DNA of 64,000 nt from an uncultured Azospirillum sp. (GTDB lineage Bacteria > Pseudomonadota > Alphaproteobacteria > Rickettsiales > UBA3002): positions 239,704-303,703 of the forward strand of contig CAZGXX010000001.1 in NCBI GenBank assembly GCA_964530085.1, written 5' to 3'. A program made the translations under genes and the position numbers. The notes beneath the pieces were generated by a model, which saw nothing but the letters and a program-made list of their open reading frames with translations, was not told the DNA's origin and did no database searches. Below, piece after piece: positions 2,418 through 51,889 of the stretch (the first letter of the stretch is position 1; the number at the start of each line of letters is the position of its first letter).

Positions 2418-2452
2418 AGGTTACAGGTTTTAGGTTTCAGCTTCCAGCAAAA
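2418..2452 (-). repeat. Heptanucleotide tandem array (degenerate): AGGTTAC AGGTTTT AGGTTTC AGCTTCC AGCAAAA
   Basis: Read directly. Starts 6 nt upstream of the O-methyltransferase ATG (2411), in the divergent spacer with ycgN. Confidence 0.6.
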
Positions 2453-2469
2453 GCGTTATACTCGCCCCC

Positions 2470-2877
2470 ATGAAACAACCCGCGTTCCTCCAAAAACCGA
2501 TCGAGAGAATGACCGACGCCGAGTGGGAATCGCTCTGCGACGGCTGCGGCCTCTGCTGCCAGATCCGCGTGGAGGACGAAGATACGGGCGCGATTGCACT
2601 GAGCAATGTGGCGTGCCGGTATTTATGCTTGAACAGTCACCAATGCACCGACTACGCCAACCGGCAGAAGAACGTGCCGGACTGCATCAAGGTGACGCCA
2701 GAAAACGTGCATGAGCTGACATGGCTGCCTGCGACCTGCGGCTATCGGCTGGTGGCGCGGGGCGAGAAATTACCGCGCTGGCATCACCTCATTTCGGGGG
2801 ACAAAACCCGCGTGCATCGTTATGGCCCCTCGATGAAGGGCAGCATCATTTCTGAAGACGACGCGGACTGGCAGTAG
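2470..2877 (+). CDS. ycgN: YcgN/UPF0260 cysteine-cluster protein
   Basis: WESLCDGCGLCC ... CRYL ... CTDY ... LPATCGYR pattern typical of the family. Confidence 0.8.
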   Translation: MKQPAFLQKPIERMTDAEWESLCDGCGLCCQIRVEDEDTGAIALSNVACRYLCLNSHQCTDYANRQKNVPDCIKVTPENVHELTWLPATCGYRLVARGEKLPRWHHLISGDKTRVHRYGPSMKGSIISEDDADWQ

Positions 2878-2882
2878 CGCGG

Positions 2883-3347
2883 TTAGTTATGCCCCTCGGA
2901 GGATTCCACCGGTGGTGGGGCGCTGCGCTTACTCTCGCTCGAGGGCTTTTGGCCGTTCACATATGGCTCGCCATGAAATTTTTTGCTCTCCCAGTCTACC
3001 GGTGCCTCGTTTCTATTGTTCTCGGCGCGTTCGTGACGTCTCTTTTTATGAATGAAGGCACTTGTTGAACTGCCATCTTCGTGGGTGAATGCGCTGCGTG
3101 GCTTGCCATTTTTGTCACTGAACGCGCTTCTTTTCTTATCAATGGCACTACGGGGATTTCCCTCTTTATCGATAAAGGCGCTTTTTTTCTTATCAAACGC
3201 GCTCCGCTGCTTACCATCTTTATTGGTGAAGGCGCTGATGGGAACATCTTTGGCAGGAGATTCTTGAGGTGTCTCTGGCAATGTTGGGGCGGCCGATGCA
3301 GCGAGGCTGAAGAATGTTACCACGAAAAAAATCTGAACGCGCATCAT
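2883..3347 (-). CDS. Secreted basic protein with tandem SAF-x-DK-x-G-x-x-R repeats (unknown function)
   Basis: Start moved to ATGATG at 3347, which has AAGGGAG upstream. Signal peptide MMRVQIFFVVTFFSLAASA. About seven SAF-initiated repeats. Lower G+C. Confidence 0.6.
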   Translation of the reverse strand: MMRVQIFFVVTFFSLAASAAPTLPETPQESPAKDVPISAFTNKDGKQRSAFDKKKSAFIDKEGNPRSAIDKKRSAFSDKNGKPRSAFTHEDGSSTSAFIHKKRRHERAENNRNEAPVDWESKKFHGEPYVNGQKPSSESKRSAPPPVESSEGHN

Positions 3348-3379
3348 AAAGGCTCCCTTTTTGCTAGACTCACTATACA

Positions 3380-3423
3380 CCAAAAGAAAGGGCGATGAAA
3401 GCCTGACTTCCACCGCCCTTGCG
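3380..3423 (-). terminator. Rho-independent terminator after the 3442..3744 gene
   Basis: Minus-strand AAGGGCG-GU-GGAAG-UCAGG-CUUUC-AU-CGCCCUU followed by UCUUUUGG. Confidence 0.6.
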
Positions 3424-3441
3424 CTTACATTAGGCTAGAAA

Positions 3442-3744
3442 CTAGCGCTTCTCTACCGCGCGGGTGCTTGTGGTGCCCGGGTAGGTGTAGCGGTCGTTTT
3501 TATTGTGGTTGCAGGATTTTTTCATCGCAGCTTTTTTCTTCGCTTTCTTTGCCGGTGCGGCAGGATGGTCGCTTGCAGCGTCTTTTGCTTTCTCAGTCGA
3601 TTTTTCAGCCTTTTTCTCAGTAACAACAGCCTCTTTTTTGACTTCAGCCGCGGCTTCTTCTGGCTTTTTCGACGAACGTGCGAACGAGGCATCCGCTGCA
3701 ACAACGAGCGAGAGCGCAACGAGGCAGGATAGGAAACGATTCAT
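3442..3744 (-). CDS. Secreted Lys/Ala/Glu-rich small protein (unknown function)
   Basis: Signal peptide MNRFLSCLVALSLVVAADA. GGAG lies 7 nt upstream of the ATG. A terminator-like hairpin follows. Confidence 0.55.
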   Translation of the reverse strand: MNRFLSCLVALSLVVAADASFARSSKKPEEAAAEVKKEAVVTEKKAEKSTEKAKDAASDHPAAPAKKAKKKAAMKKSCNHNKNDRYTYPGTTSTRAVEKR

Positions 3745-3837
3745 TGAGTAACTCCATGGGGTAAGGTGAATGTAACAGCCCGCTTATACCAGAAGATGCG
3801 CGGGTGACAAGCCCAACAAATCGGGTAGAGTGTGTGC

Positions 3838-49604: not shown

Positions 49605-49979
49605 ATGAAAAAATTCCTGCTCATCGGCATCCCGGCGCTTATCATCATCGCGCTGATGTTCACCAACGCGCCCTATCAGTGGCTGACGCAGCGCAGCATC
49701 GACAACGTGCTGGTGAAGGACAAGCAGATCACCACCGAATCGGCAAAGAAGGGTGATAAGGTGCAAAGCACCTACCTCATTTTCACCGACCACGGCGTGT
49801 TCCGTAACGACGATGCGGGCTGGTTCGTGAAATATAACAGCTCGGACGTGTACGGGAATCTCGATATCGGCAAGCGCTACCGCTTCAAGGTTTATGGCTG
49901 GCGCATTCCCATCTTCAGCATGTACCCCAACCTCGTGCGGGCGGAAGAGGTGAAGGCGGGCGAGGGTGAGAAGAAGTAG
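49605..49979 (+). CDS. Small membrane-anchored hypothetical protein
   Basis: N-terminal TM helix (FLLIGIPALIIIALMF). GAGG lies 6 nt upstream of the ATG. Sits between proB and obg on the opposite strand. Confidence 0.55.
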   Translation: MKKFLLIGIPALIIIALMFTNAPYQWLTQRSIDNVLVKDKQITTESAKKGDKVQSTYLIFTDHGVFRNDDAGWFVKYNSSDVYGNLDIGKRYRFKVYGWRIPIFSMYPNLVRAEEVKAGEGEKK

Positions 49980-51029
49980 CTAGGCTTCGCCGTCGCCCTT
50001 GGTGATGAAGAACGGCAGGGGTGGTGGTTCTTTCTCGCCGCGGTAGCGCTCGATGGTTTGCAGCATCTCGACGAGCAGTGGTTCGAGGTCTTGTCGCGCG
50101 GCGGCGGAGATGGTGAAGACGCGCCCGCCGCTGGCCTTCTCCAGCGCTTTCTTCTTTTTCTTAATTTCGGCAGCGGTGAGTGCGTCGCATTTATTTAACG
50201 CGACGAGTTCAGGCTTTTCGGCGAGGTCGTCGTTGAACTGTTCGATCTCGTGGCGGATGGTTTCATAACTCGCGACGACATCCTCTGCCGTGCCATCCAC
50301 CAGATGCAGCAGCACGCCGCAACGCTCCACATGGCCGAGGAAGCGGGTGCCAAGCCCCTTGCCCTCCGCCGCGCCCTCGATGAGGCCGGGGATATCGGCC
50401 AGCACGAACTCCGTATCGCCCACCGACACGACGCCGAGCTGCGGCGCGAGGGTGGTAAACGGGTAATCCGCAATTTTGGGTTTGGCCGCCGTGACGGCAG
50501 CAAGGAAGGTGGACTTGCCCGCGTTCGGCAGGCCGAGCAGGCCAGCGTCCGACAGCAATTTCAACTTGAGCCAGAGCGTGCGCTCCTCACCTTTGCCAGC
50601 GGGGACGGATTGCACCGGCGCTTGGTTGGTGGAGGATTTGAAATGCATGTTGCCCAGCCCGCCGCGGCCACCTTGGGCGATGACGATTTCCTGATCGCCA
50701 TGGGTGAAATCGGCGAGCAGCGTCTCGCGGTCTTCGTCGTAAATCTGGGTGCCGACGGGGACGAGGAGGATCATGTCGTCCGCGCCTTTGCCATAGCGCT
50801 GCTTGCCCATGCCGTGGCCGCCCTTGGCGCCTTTGAAATGCTGCTGGAAGCGGTAATCGATGAGGGTGTTGAGGCCAGTGACGGCCTTCATGACGATGCT
50901 GGCGCCGCGCCCGCCATCGCCGCCATCCGGCCCGCCCTCGGGGATGAATTTCTCGCGCCGGAACGACACGCAGCCCTCGCCGCCGTCGCCGGCTTTGACG
51001 TAGATTTTGGTTTCATCGACGAAGTGCAT
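49980..51029 (-). CDS. obg: GTPase Obg/CgtA
   Basis: [19 protein letters not shown] Obg fold. G1 [10 protein letters not shown]3 [10 protein letters not shown]4 NKCD. Start at ATG 51029. Confidence 0.95.
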
Positions 51030-51155
51030 GGTCAGGTTCCGGGTTTCAGGTGTTAGCGAAGATGTGATCGAGGCGTTTACACGGTATCCCGCGCGTTTGC
51101 ACGCGGTTATTCTTTTTTTGTTGACCAGTCTTGCTCGTGGTGCGACGATTTTTAT

Positions 51156-51467
51156 ATGAAAATAAACCCGCATGTTGAGAAGTTGTTGCTCTGGACGTTT
51201 ATTGTCCTGTTTCCATTATCTTACTTTCTACCTTTTTTTACTCCGTGGGAGTGGACTAAGACATATCCGTCCGTGTGGAGTTTTATCATGTTTTTTGGCC
51301 AGATGGCTCTGTTATTAGGGTTCATCGTTTCGCCGCTATTGCTAATATACCTATCTCGAAAAAAATCAGCCCTTAGAATCCATAGAGTGGCCAAATATTG
51401 CGCAGTAATCTATTTTATAATGACGTGCCGCCTTATGTACCTTATAGTACAGGGAGTAGGAGCATAA
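51156..51467 (+). CDS. Possible small 3-TM membrane protein (103 aa)
   Basis: AT-rich ORF (20/60 G+C in line 51181), hydrophobic. Followed directly by a strong terminator hairpin. No SD seen, so it could be non-coding. Confidence 0.4.
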
Positions 51468-51474
51468 CAAAAAA

Positions 51475-51500
51475 GGGAGCGAAAACGCTCCCTTTTCTTT
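51475..51500. terminator. Bidirectional rho-independent terminator between ORF 51156..51467 and rpmA
   Basis: GGGAGCG-AAAA-CGCTCCC, flanked by TTTTCTTT on the plus strand and TTTTTTGTT on the minus strand. Confidence 0.75.
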
Positions 51501-51530
51501 GTGTCATGCCGCCGAGGCGGGATGACGAAA

Positions 51531-51842
51531 CTATGCAGCGGCCTTTTTCTTTGGCGCTTTCGGGGCTTTTGCAGCTTCCACCGCAGCGGCAGCGGCGATA
51601 ACCGACACCACGTTTTTGTTGCCCGCTTTTTTGCTGTATTTCACTGCGCCATCCACCGTTGCGAAGATGGTGTAGTCTTTACCGAGGCCGACGCCAACGC
51701 CTGGATGGTACGTGGTGCCGCGCTGGCGGATGATGATGTTACCGGCGAGCACTTCTTCGCCACCGAATTTTTTTACGCCAAGGCGCTGGCCTTGCGAATC
51801 GCGACCGTTGCGGGATGAACCACCGGCTTTCTTATGTGCCAT
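51531..51842 (-). CDS. rpmA: 50S ribosomal protein L27 (with Ala/Lys-rich C-terminal tail)
   Basis: [33 protein letters not shown]. Confidence 0.95.
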
Positions 51843-51861
51843 TTTAGACTCCTTCAGTAGT

Positions 51862-51889
51862 AGCCAGTGGCCAGTAGCCAGTGGCCAGT
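51862..51889 (-). repeat. Heptanucleotide tandem array (AGCCAGT GGCCAGT)x2
   Basis: Perfect 14-mer x2 (a partial unit CAGTAGT precedes it at 51855). Fills the rplU-rpmA spacer upstream of the rpmA SD. Confidence 0.9.

Follow-up and report, generated by a model that had tools for sequence, protein, structure and literature searches.

The stretch of DNA studied here, hereafter called the window, comprises 64,000 nucleotides of contig CAZGXX010000001.1 (assembly GCA_964530085.1) from an uncultured freshwater alphaproteobacterium. It contains a set of short tandem arrays of heptanucleotides, located beside or within the genes for a SAM (S-adenosylmethionine)-dependent methyltransferase and ycgN, thiL, rlmH/gpmI, proA/nadD, proB and rplU/rpmA. 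Four of these loci are spacers and two are coding. A first-pass annotation of the window had listed seven such sequences, all of which are present letter for letter at the coordinates it quoted. Tandem Repeats Finder (TRF), which it had proposed as a check and which we ran on the window, detected period-7 arrays at six sites (19180–19210, 44897–44924, 44943–44975, 46619–46649, 49501–49531 and 51859–51890). The arrays and associated elements are listed in Table 1.

Table 1. Heptad arrays and associated elements in the window. Sequences of minus-strand features are given in the sense of the adjacent gene.
Feature	Position	Strand	Remarks
3' arm of the rlmH–gpmI doublet, (CACTCAC)x4	44897–44924	-	No G; 5 nt before the gpmI ATG (44891)
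Loop of the doublet, AAAGAGCCTGCTAATCCTG	44925–44943	-	19 nt; core GCTGCTAA shared with relatives that have no array
5' arm of the doublet, ...GTGAGTA ATGAGTC GCGAGTT GTGAGTT GTG	44944–44978	-	Partly decayed complement of the 3' arm
Single family-A array at the proA/nadD junction, CAC(CACTCAC GACTCAC)x2	46619–46649	-	Clean 30-nt insertion relative to the sister species
Putative extended -10-like element, TGCTATAAC	49492–49500	-	Adjoins the 3' end of the proB array; ATG 6 nt further on
Single family-A array in the divergent spacer upstream of proB, GATTCAC CATTCAC TATTCAC CATTCAC	49501–49535	-	15 nt before the ATG at 49485
Single family-B array in the rplU–rpmA spacer, (ACTGGCC ACTGGCT)x2 ACT	51859–51891	-	1 nt past the rplU stop codon
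thiL-internal array, GAATGAC GAATCAC GAATGAT GAATCAC	19180–19210	-	Encodes SNDESRMMNH within a variable-length linker
Degenerate AGGTTNN tract in the 58-nt divergent methyltransferase/ycgN spacer	2418–2452		Membership doubtful

The window was scanned for tandem arrays of at least four copies with at least 80% self-identity at periods of 4–18 nt, and the result was compared with dinucleotide-preserving shuffles. Five arrays with a period of 7 were found against 0.04 expected, and no other period exceeded the shuffle expectation. A relaxed scan (three copies, at least 85% self-identity) gave six period-7 arrays against 0.27 in the shuffles. The arrays are thus a real, non-random and heptamer-specific family, as had been proposed. 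Arrays in which only the core of the unit is conserved, for example that upstream of gpmI in the relative L087, escape scans based on self-similarity and were caught by a scan for the core pattern. An assembly artefact was ruled out because independent assemblies agree and reading frames are intact: the same arrays are present in independent Logan assemblies of two sequencing runs, the contigs of which are 100% identical to the window, the arrays of the sister species introduced below are identical between the JGI/NCBI contig and a Logan contig, and every array inside a gene keeps the frame open.

All arrays in the window and in the sister species are 28–33 nt long, and intermediates with two or three units were found in neither. 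The architecture originally described, a pair of heptamers repeated twice, applies to the arrays at 19180, 46618, 49500 and 51859, which score higher at period 14 in TRF (2.2–2.3 copies, 94–100% identity). It does not apply to 44897, which is a pure fourfold heptamer, nor to 44944 and 2418. Several arrays are located just upstream of start codons as G-poor tracts on the sense strand, and the distances reported for them are correct: 5 nt for gpmI, 15 nt for proB, 19 nt for rpmA (with an AGGAG in between) and 6 nt for the methyltransferase gene. All arrays but one had been described as G/T-rich on the plus strand, which does not hold for 51862, where the composition is balanced. As GC skew along the plus strand of the window is positive and AT skew mostly negative, this polarity is confounded with replication-strand composition.

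The comparison is based on ~64 kb of the source genome and ~20 kb from each relative. The closest genome, L003, is a metagenome-assembled genome (MAG) from a lake, deposited as ‘Rickettsiales bacterium’. It represents a sister species, with a ProA 94% identical to that of the window, DNA identity of ~89–90% and an unchanged gene order. The thiL region of this species was taken from a second contig (L080) and an independent one (L081). Seven further lineages with a homologous gene cluster (L004, L085, L087, L090–L093) were collected via their Obg and ProA homologues. In the three lineages for which it was measured (L004, L085 and L087), ProA identity to the window is 64–70%, and these are probably other genera of one family, since the four-way identities give a star-like pattern. 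A scan of metagenome contigs with ProA did not reveal close relatives (best hit 58%). Besides the window and the sister species, four of the seven further lineages (L085, L087, L092 and L093) carry arrays, with eight period-7 arrays in 21 kb of L085. L090 contains a family-B doublet only (see below), and no arrays were found in the compared loci of L004 and L091.

It had been concluded from the differing unit sequences that the arrays are not copies of one element. This has to be corrected, as the units fall into few families with a consensus and near-identical arrays are found at non-orthologous sites. The families are nAYTCAC (A), ACTGGCY (B; complement AGCCAGT) and AGGTTAG (C). A heptad logo computed over 31 distinct units reads n-A-Y-T-C-A-C, with positions 2 and 4–7 nearly invariant. 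The 31-nt template CAC(NNNTCAC)x4 fits the 3' arm at gpmI, the nadD and proB arrays and arrays in the relatives, and thiL less cleanly; in the window it matches those sites only, with none expected. When up to two mismatches are allowed, (NNNTCAC)x4 has 13 matches in 173 kb of loci from the family, compared with none in 861 kb of unrelated loci and none in shuffles. Family B comprises the rplU–rpmA array of the window, a doublet within obg of the sister species and, in L092, an array located upstream of rplM. The first and the last of these are identical in 32 of 33 nt at non-orthologous loci. The ACTG core of this family may be shared with STRR1 and STRR3, two of the short tandemly repeated repetitive (STRR) sequences of cyanobacteria, and with the TAACTGA repeat. 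Family C is represented by a doublet in the sister species.

Gains and losses are evident between the two closest genomes. Specific to the window are the rplU–rpmA and proA/nadD arrays, each a clean 30-nt insertion. Specific to the sister species are the obg-internal doublet (net +63 nt, +21 codons, in frame), an array in the ribD linker (45 nt in place of 39 nt) and a doublet filling a gap between convergent genes which is only 11 nt long in the window. The positions at gpmI and thiL are thus shared, those at rpmA, nadD, obg and ribD lineage-specific. The outgroup L004 is devoid of the rpmA, obg and gpmI arrays; therefore the rpmA and obg elements are derived insertions. A young, genus-specific invasion, considered because this outgroup (70%) has no arrays at all, had to be revised, as L085, L087, L092 and L093 carry arrays at gpmI, proB or obg sites.

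A number of arrays are translated. The encoded peptide is located in a linker of variable length in ThiL (window and sister species), at the N-terminus of NadD (window), in a C-terminal loop of Obg as an extension of 21 codons (sister species and L085) and in the inter-domain linker of RibD (sister species). In L085, ArgC carries array peptides at its N-terminus and in an internal loop, and L092 has an insertion at the same internal loop. In L090, a doublet of the obg type is read at the N-terminus of a PstC-like permease.

Doublets, i.e. two arrays in inverted orientation separated by a loop, are located at gpmI, in obg, in the spacer between argC and a hexapeptide-transferase gene and in the convergent-gene spacer. 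The one at gpmI is an inverted repeat of 27 nt with 81% complementarity. Its predicted RNA hairpin (-31.1 kcal/mol, z -3.1) has a mismatch at every seventh base. Five further doublets from the relatives fold in the same manner with z values of -4.0 to -7.9, so that one mismatch per heptad is found in all six (z -3.1 to -7.9). Single family-A arrays, by comparison, show no more folding than shuffled sequence does (z ~0). The two arms of doublets change in concert between genera, with ~6/7 complementarity being kept. As an example, the obg doublet of L085 occupies the site that it has in the sister species, with a homologous loop, homologous ends and altered units on both arms. The doublet type found in obg recurs in the pstC-like gene of L090, which has 53 versus 49 matches to the obg doublets in the two orientations.

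One conserved element is that between rlmH and gpmI. In the sense direction, the rlmH stop codon is followed, after ~6 nt, by the GTGAGTT-type arm, the 19-nt loop, the (CACTCAC)x4 arm and TAAAC-ATG. Within this spacer we found only three substitutions in 89 nt between the window and the sister species (96.6% identity); the number of units is unchanged and the (CACTCAC)x4 arm identical. Identity at the third codon positions of the neighbouring genes is 0.80 for gpmI and 0.79 for rlmH. The gpmI element therefore appears to be under constraint, judged by its sequence. Orthologous nAYTCAC arrays end 4, 4 and 0 nt before the gpmI ATG in L085, L087 and L093, respectively. L093 has the full doublet, L085 and L087 have kept the 3' arm with only remnants of the 5' arm, and a decayed remnant of the array is present in the gpmI leader of L092. 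In folding predictions for L085 and L093, the base of the hairpin joins the region of the stop codon to that of the AUG. As the array is kept in four further lineages, once in decayed form, a role in initiation or in translational coupling is plausible.

Two of these relatives contain an additional gene between rlmH and gpmI: in L085 (15906–16400) a small gene for a 164-residue protein without known identity, and in L087 (10177–10539) one for an ankyrin-repeat protein of 120 residues. Despite the extra gene after rlmH, the heptad array still abuts gpmI in both.

The proB array is shared with L085, where the units and the downstream sequence are as in the window, followed by TGCTATAAC..ACCC-ATG. 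The element TGCTATAAC is conserved between the window and L085 (11345–11353), and a similar one is present in L091 (upstream of 11144). It is a possible extended -10 element, which would imply a leaderless proB mRNA. If the GTG start codon, which has a GGAG, is used, translation of the nadD array would lengthen NadD at its N-terminus (MHSPTTHDSPLTTHRK...). The sister species has no array here, and its proA TGA overlaps the nadD ATG. At rpmA, both the AGGAG and the ATG lie downstream of the family-B array, which is missing as a 30-nt indel from the sister species and from L004. In thiL, the sister species has a four-unit array of equal length at the equivalent site with the units CACTCAC, CGTTCAC, CACTCAC and TATTCAC, as compared with GAATSAC in the window, so that the units have changed in concert.

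The sequence at 2418–2452 had also been counted as an array. It is degenerate, and neither TRF nor our own scans pick it up; the description as a spacer flanked by an inverted repeat (2412–2431/2449–2468) suits it better. Its units resemble those of the AGGTTAG doublet of the sister species, and the tract may be a decayed family-C element. The inverted repeat CATGGGGCGAG / CTCGCCCCCATG flanks the 58-nt methyltransferase/ycgN spacer and takes in the start codons of both genes (2406–2475). Searches with Rfam at gathering thresholds revealed no family anywhere in the window, and a consensus scan for promoters and terminators between 43 and 53 kb revealed nothing coinciding with the arrays.

Several functions had been proposed in the first-pass annotation. 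One was a replacement of the Shine–Dalgarno (SD) sequence, and indeed gpmI, proB and the methyltransferase gene are devoid of an SD. However, only nine of 26 genes called on the Logan contigs L001, L002, L082 and L084 have an SD core of at least 4 nt at 4–15 nt upstream of the start. The genome thus makes little use of SD sequences, so that the arrays do not ‘replace’ them, and rpmA keeps its AGGAG in addition to the array. For slipped-strand contingency tracts, variation of unit number between orthologous spacers of related genomes had been named as the thing to look for; none was found at gpmI or thiL. Unit number is invariant in the window, the two independent assemblies, the sister species (gpmI and thiL) and six ThiL variants, and the arrays are therefore not contingency tracts. 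The idea of protein or RNA binding sites fits the conserved core with its variable positions and fares less well with the several unit families, the copies in coding sequence and the turnover, all of which speak against a single regulon. A leader or initiation role at some sites is plausible on sequence grounds, because the gpmI array is kept in four further lineages and the proB array shared with one (L085).

A likeness to the STRR sequences of cyanobacteria had been noted, which is apt, together with the statement that no equivalent is described for this type of genome. The latter does not stand: heptameric simple sequence repeats (SSRs), inverted pairs of such arrays in Xanthomonas, and start-proximal TAACTGA repeats with the idea of SD replacement have all been published (PMC4692102, PMC4679880). 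A literature search with the heptamer strings gave unrelated matches only. The arrays belong to the known class of heptameric SSRs and STRRs and are a lineage-specific addition to it.

Heptameric SSRs occur in excess in many bacteria according to a 2007 survey, as cited by Rehm et al. (2015, PMC4692102). The same paper reports the hypothesis that slippage by 7 nt reflects the footprint of the polymerase. Xanthomonas has ~186 GGGAATC arrays per genome, with 70–75 convergent inverted pairs and 7–11% of arrays intragenic; 83% of the array positions are shared between species, while length and sequence vary (PMC4692102). The arrays described here resemble those of Xanthomonas and the GGGGAYT repeats of Nostoc in having few dominant units per lineage, in being mostly intergenic with a minority in genes, in occurring as single arrays and as nearby convergent inverted pairs able to form stem-loops, in positions largely shared between related species, and in their housekeeping neighbours. 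They differ by their uniform ~4.4 units, compared with up to 14 and 26 units there, by their host, an uncultured alphaproteobacterium, and by the presence of whole hairpin doublets in frame in essential genes. Formation of G-quadruplexes was ruled out, as at least four tracts of three or more G are needed and no unit contains GGG on either strand.

STRR heptamers were described in 1990 for Calothrix (as cited in PMC4692102). The cyanobacterial loci L034, L035, L036 and L040, obtained incidentally via ProA, served as a positive control; they contain STRR arrays of 4–9 units, several of them with a 14-nt superperiod and with partner arrays on the opposite strand. STRRs and the present arrays are both tandem heptamers with several unit families per genome, dispersed and mostly non-coding. 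The cyanobacterial arrays belong to another phylum, are often longer and have other units. STRRs in the strict sense are those of heterocyst-forming cyanobacteria with the units STRR1–3, whereas the units here differ and the genomes nearest to the window are alphaproteobacterial MAGs.

In a Beggiatoa relative, 170 sets of TAACTGA were reported, most of which end a few nucleotides before SD-less start codons (MacGregor, 2015; PMC4679880). Some are located in the termini of open reading frames (ORFs) and in ribosomal protein operons, and both translational hypotheses and possible mobility were raised (PMC4679880). Copies in protein termini and in ribosomal protein operons are found here as well, and forward heptamers (two to six there) close upstream of SD-less starts are found at some sites. 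This start-proximal, SD-less pattern holds for gpmI (0–5 nt in five lineages), proB and the hexapeptide-transferase gene of L085; it does not hold for thiL, ribD, obg and rpmA, and 65% of all genes are without an SD. In the Beggiatoaceae, there is a single unit with stop codons in all forward frames and only one inverted repeat, whereas several unit families, frequent hairpin doublets and translated sense-strand arrays are found here.

In REP/REPIN systems (repetitive extragenic palindromes and their doublets), an inverted doublet acts as the unit and is mobilized by REP-associated tyrosine transposases (RAYTs; PMC3116915). The present elements share with them the short and dispersed nature, the coexistence of hairpin doublets and singlets, and the strong contrast between close relatives. 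REPs, however, are individually palindromic, strictly extragenic and linked to RAYTs, whereas the arms here are non-palindromic tandem heptads, copies are found in genes and young singlets insert alone. A RAYT link is also unsupported by the ~40 ORFs scanned in the window, none of which encodes such a protein. Finally, Rickettsia palindromic elements (RPEs) are palindromes of ~100–150 bp located between genes and in frame in housekeeping protein genes, in regions that tolerate them. Palindromic repeats in frame in protein genes of a lineage labelled Rickettsiales are a likeness. Unlike RPEs, the elements here are heptad-periodic, with a length of 31 nt (single) or ~80 nt (doublet).

Taken together, we favour, with moderate confidence, the explanation that the arrays are lineage-restricted, heptad-periodic short dispersed repeats of the heptameric-SSR/STRR type, mostly neutral or selfish, with few copies co-opted. 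The element would be ~31 nt long, equivalent to 4.4 heptads and often to 2.2 copies of a 14-mer, and would exist as a single array or as an inverted doublet. New sites would be reached by some form of copying. This is suggested by the quantised length, the exact units at independent insertions, the near-identical non-orthologous copies and the doublets with related loops in different genes. Local slippage or conversion would then homogenize the units in steps of 7 or 14 nt, as indicated by the concerted unit changes and the ABAB patterns. Elements would easily be lost. They would persist only at places that can bear a small insert, namely the short spacers of compact operons and, translated in frame, the loops, linkers and termini of proteins. 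The proximity to start codons may largely result from this tolerance of the short spacers. The majority of copies would probably be neutral or selfish, and a minority co-opted.

The gpmI leader is the clearest case of co-option and the exception that looks selected, because several genera have retained the 3' arm adjacent to the AUG, with decay of the partner arm. Here, the sense-strand, largely G-poor nAYTCAC arm beside the AUG may serve as an unstructured ribosome-loading tract. In the doublet form, the hairpin may place the stop codon of the first gene beside the start codon of the second and thereby couple their translation.

Several observations weigh against this explanation. Neither a transposase nor a reverse transcriptase nor a RAYT was found among the ~40 ORFs scanned in the 64 kb, and the elements have neither target-site duplications nor conserved termini. 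The ABAB patterns need internal duplication beyond the copying of a master element. Function of the gpmI leader is argued from sequence, the array is missing from the gpmI leaders of L004 and L091, which manage without it, and the leader in the array-less L004 also has no SD. The proB array of the sister species has a core altered in concert from TCAC to TAGC. All sense-strand arrays of the window are on one chromosomal strand, so that orientation relative to transcription and to replication are inseparable. Finally, the pattern of four TCAC-NAY units was found in at least 120 IMG/VR contigs, and three permuted-core controls gave 59, 60 and 68 contigs. The core is therefore not uniquely favoured in nature, and the notion of TCAC as a universal motif was dropped. 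The excess of the TCAC core in IMG/VR is roughly two-fold or greater, and most of the signal is general abundance of heptamer SSRs. Among the matches listed, the GC content is 28–71% and the units include TATTCAC, CATTCAC, CACTCAC and TACTCAC. Four copies of ACTGGCY were found in nine IMG/VR contigs.

Could the arrays instead be unstructured, CA-rich and G-poor translation-enhancing leaders, selected at most sites chiefly for their substitution for the SD? Every lone family-A array is located on the sense strand; these arrays contain only 21 G in 322 bases and, as mentioned, show no folding beyond the shuffled level. Those at gpmI, proB and the hexapeptide-transferase gene of L085 end 0–15 nt before SD-less starts, the gpmI array is conserved across genera, and an equal hypothesis was proposed for the TAACTGA repeats (PMC4679880). 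Yet 65% of the genes have neither SD nor array, and many arrays are in coding sequence (thiL, ribD, obg, the internal site of argC and the pstC-like gene). The rpmA array precedes a canonical AGGAG and is missing from sister species and outgroup, doublets hide the supposed enhancer in a hairpin, and the proB array would be part of the promoter and not of the mRNA if TGCTATAAC is a -10 element. We thus consider this function doubtful for the majority of sites. It is even less likely that the heptads are iterated recognition sites for a sequence-specific DNA- or RNA-binding protein (for RNA, with a domain binding four bases) and the array-bearing genes its regulon. The conserved core of 4–5 nt (A.TCAC) with variable positions 1 and 3, the approximately four units per site in direct and inverted arrangement and the conserved positions at gpmI and proB would fit such sites. 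The plasmid omega repressor offers a model, as its WATCACW heptad operators are bound cooperatively by ribbon–helix–helix dimers, one per heptad; GAATCAC and ATTCAC units may resemble these operators. Against this, one factor each would be needed for no fewer than three unrelated unit families, many copies are inside the coding sequence of housekeeping genes that are unrelated to each other, sister species differ by gains and losses of sites, the proB core itself was altered in concert in one of them, and a candidate regulator was not identified.

Ordinary microsatellites, each grown in place from a chance seed by slippage with a 7-nt bias of the polymerase and without dispersal or function, would account for the homogenization of units within arrays and for the frequency of heptad arrays with arbitrary cores in IMG/VR. 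They would also fit the excess of heptameric SSRs seen in many bacteria and the polymerase-footprint idea (PMC4692102, for the former citing the 2007 survey). They would explain neither the exact units at independent lineage-specific insertions and the 32/33-nt identity at non-orthologous loci, nor the quantised length of ~31 nt without intermediates of two or three units. Whole doublets with homologous loops at different genes and insertion at sites without a local seed are likewise unexpected, and we regard growth in place as improbable. Phase variation of adjacent genes by slipped-strand contingency tracts is largely refuted and seems very improbable. Tandem repeats near the 5' ends of genes are its classic arrangement, but an array of four units is rather short to slip often, the three assemblies of the strain agree in copy number, as do the other places listed above, and the neighbours (gpmI, proB, nadD, rpmA and thiL) are housekeeping and not surface or contingency genes. 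A bolder variant of dispersal would have ~31-nt copy-and-paste modules, single or in hairpin doublets, written in a heptad code (nAYTCAC, ACTGGCY), which one cellular factor both propagates and reads, with the module at gpmI and perhaps in further leaders acting as an SD-independent initiation or stop–start coupling signal. We consider this variant possible and rather unlikely.

Apart from the arrays, some other features of the region were recorded. A 54-nt tandem repeat (2.1 copies, 77% identity) is located at 3124–3236 in an ORF without Pfam match (2883–3413, minus strand). Tandem repeats of 24 and 15 nt occur at 45812–45871, 45930–45977 and 51936–51971, in the 5' part of the rsfS ORF and in a 3' extension of rplU. 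The rsfS ORF is unusually long (171 residues), and the rplU product is an L21 protein of 180 residues with a Lys-, Ala- and Pro-rich tail (AKKPAA-like). Upstream of rplU (52454–52481, minus strand), there is a near-consensus sigma-70-type promoter (TTGACA-16-TATATT, 11/12). Large ORFs of ~470–680 residues at three loci (5143–7399, 34588–36486 and 52389–53960) are without a Pfam match at the threshold of E ≤ 1e-5; two of the loci have overlapping ORFs on opposite strands, either of which might be the coding one. The sister species has ~1.7 kb between obg and the proB-side ORF (L003 6132–7818) which is missing from the window, and ~440 nt beside the obg start in the window (51030–51465) have no counterpart in the sister species. 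The window encodes a DUF2748 protein (3832–5136, plus strand) and L091 one with a Rick_17kDa_Anti domain (1–44), both of which we take to be typical of Rickettsiales. This contrasts with a GC content of 58–62% in the genomes studied here and with a contig of 2.35 Mb in one relative.

Bacteria have been known since 1990 to contain tandem repeats of heptamers, which abound in several phyla, with their origin and function not established. The lineage described here provides a comparative series with shared gene order, in which arrays appear, vanish, change their units in concert and sit in frame in essential genes, and in which near-identical copies at unrelated loci argue for dispersal. This series makes an old question experimentally approachable. 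If the gpmI leader is functional, it would offer a handle on SD-less initiation or coupling in a genome in which two-thirds of the genes have no SD; if not, the arrays would add one more well-documented case to a class of selfish or neutral repeats that is already known. Should the elements prove to be modules that are both propagated and read, they would be the first tractable STRR-type repeat with demonstrable mobility and function, kept at gpmI over genus-to-family-level time.

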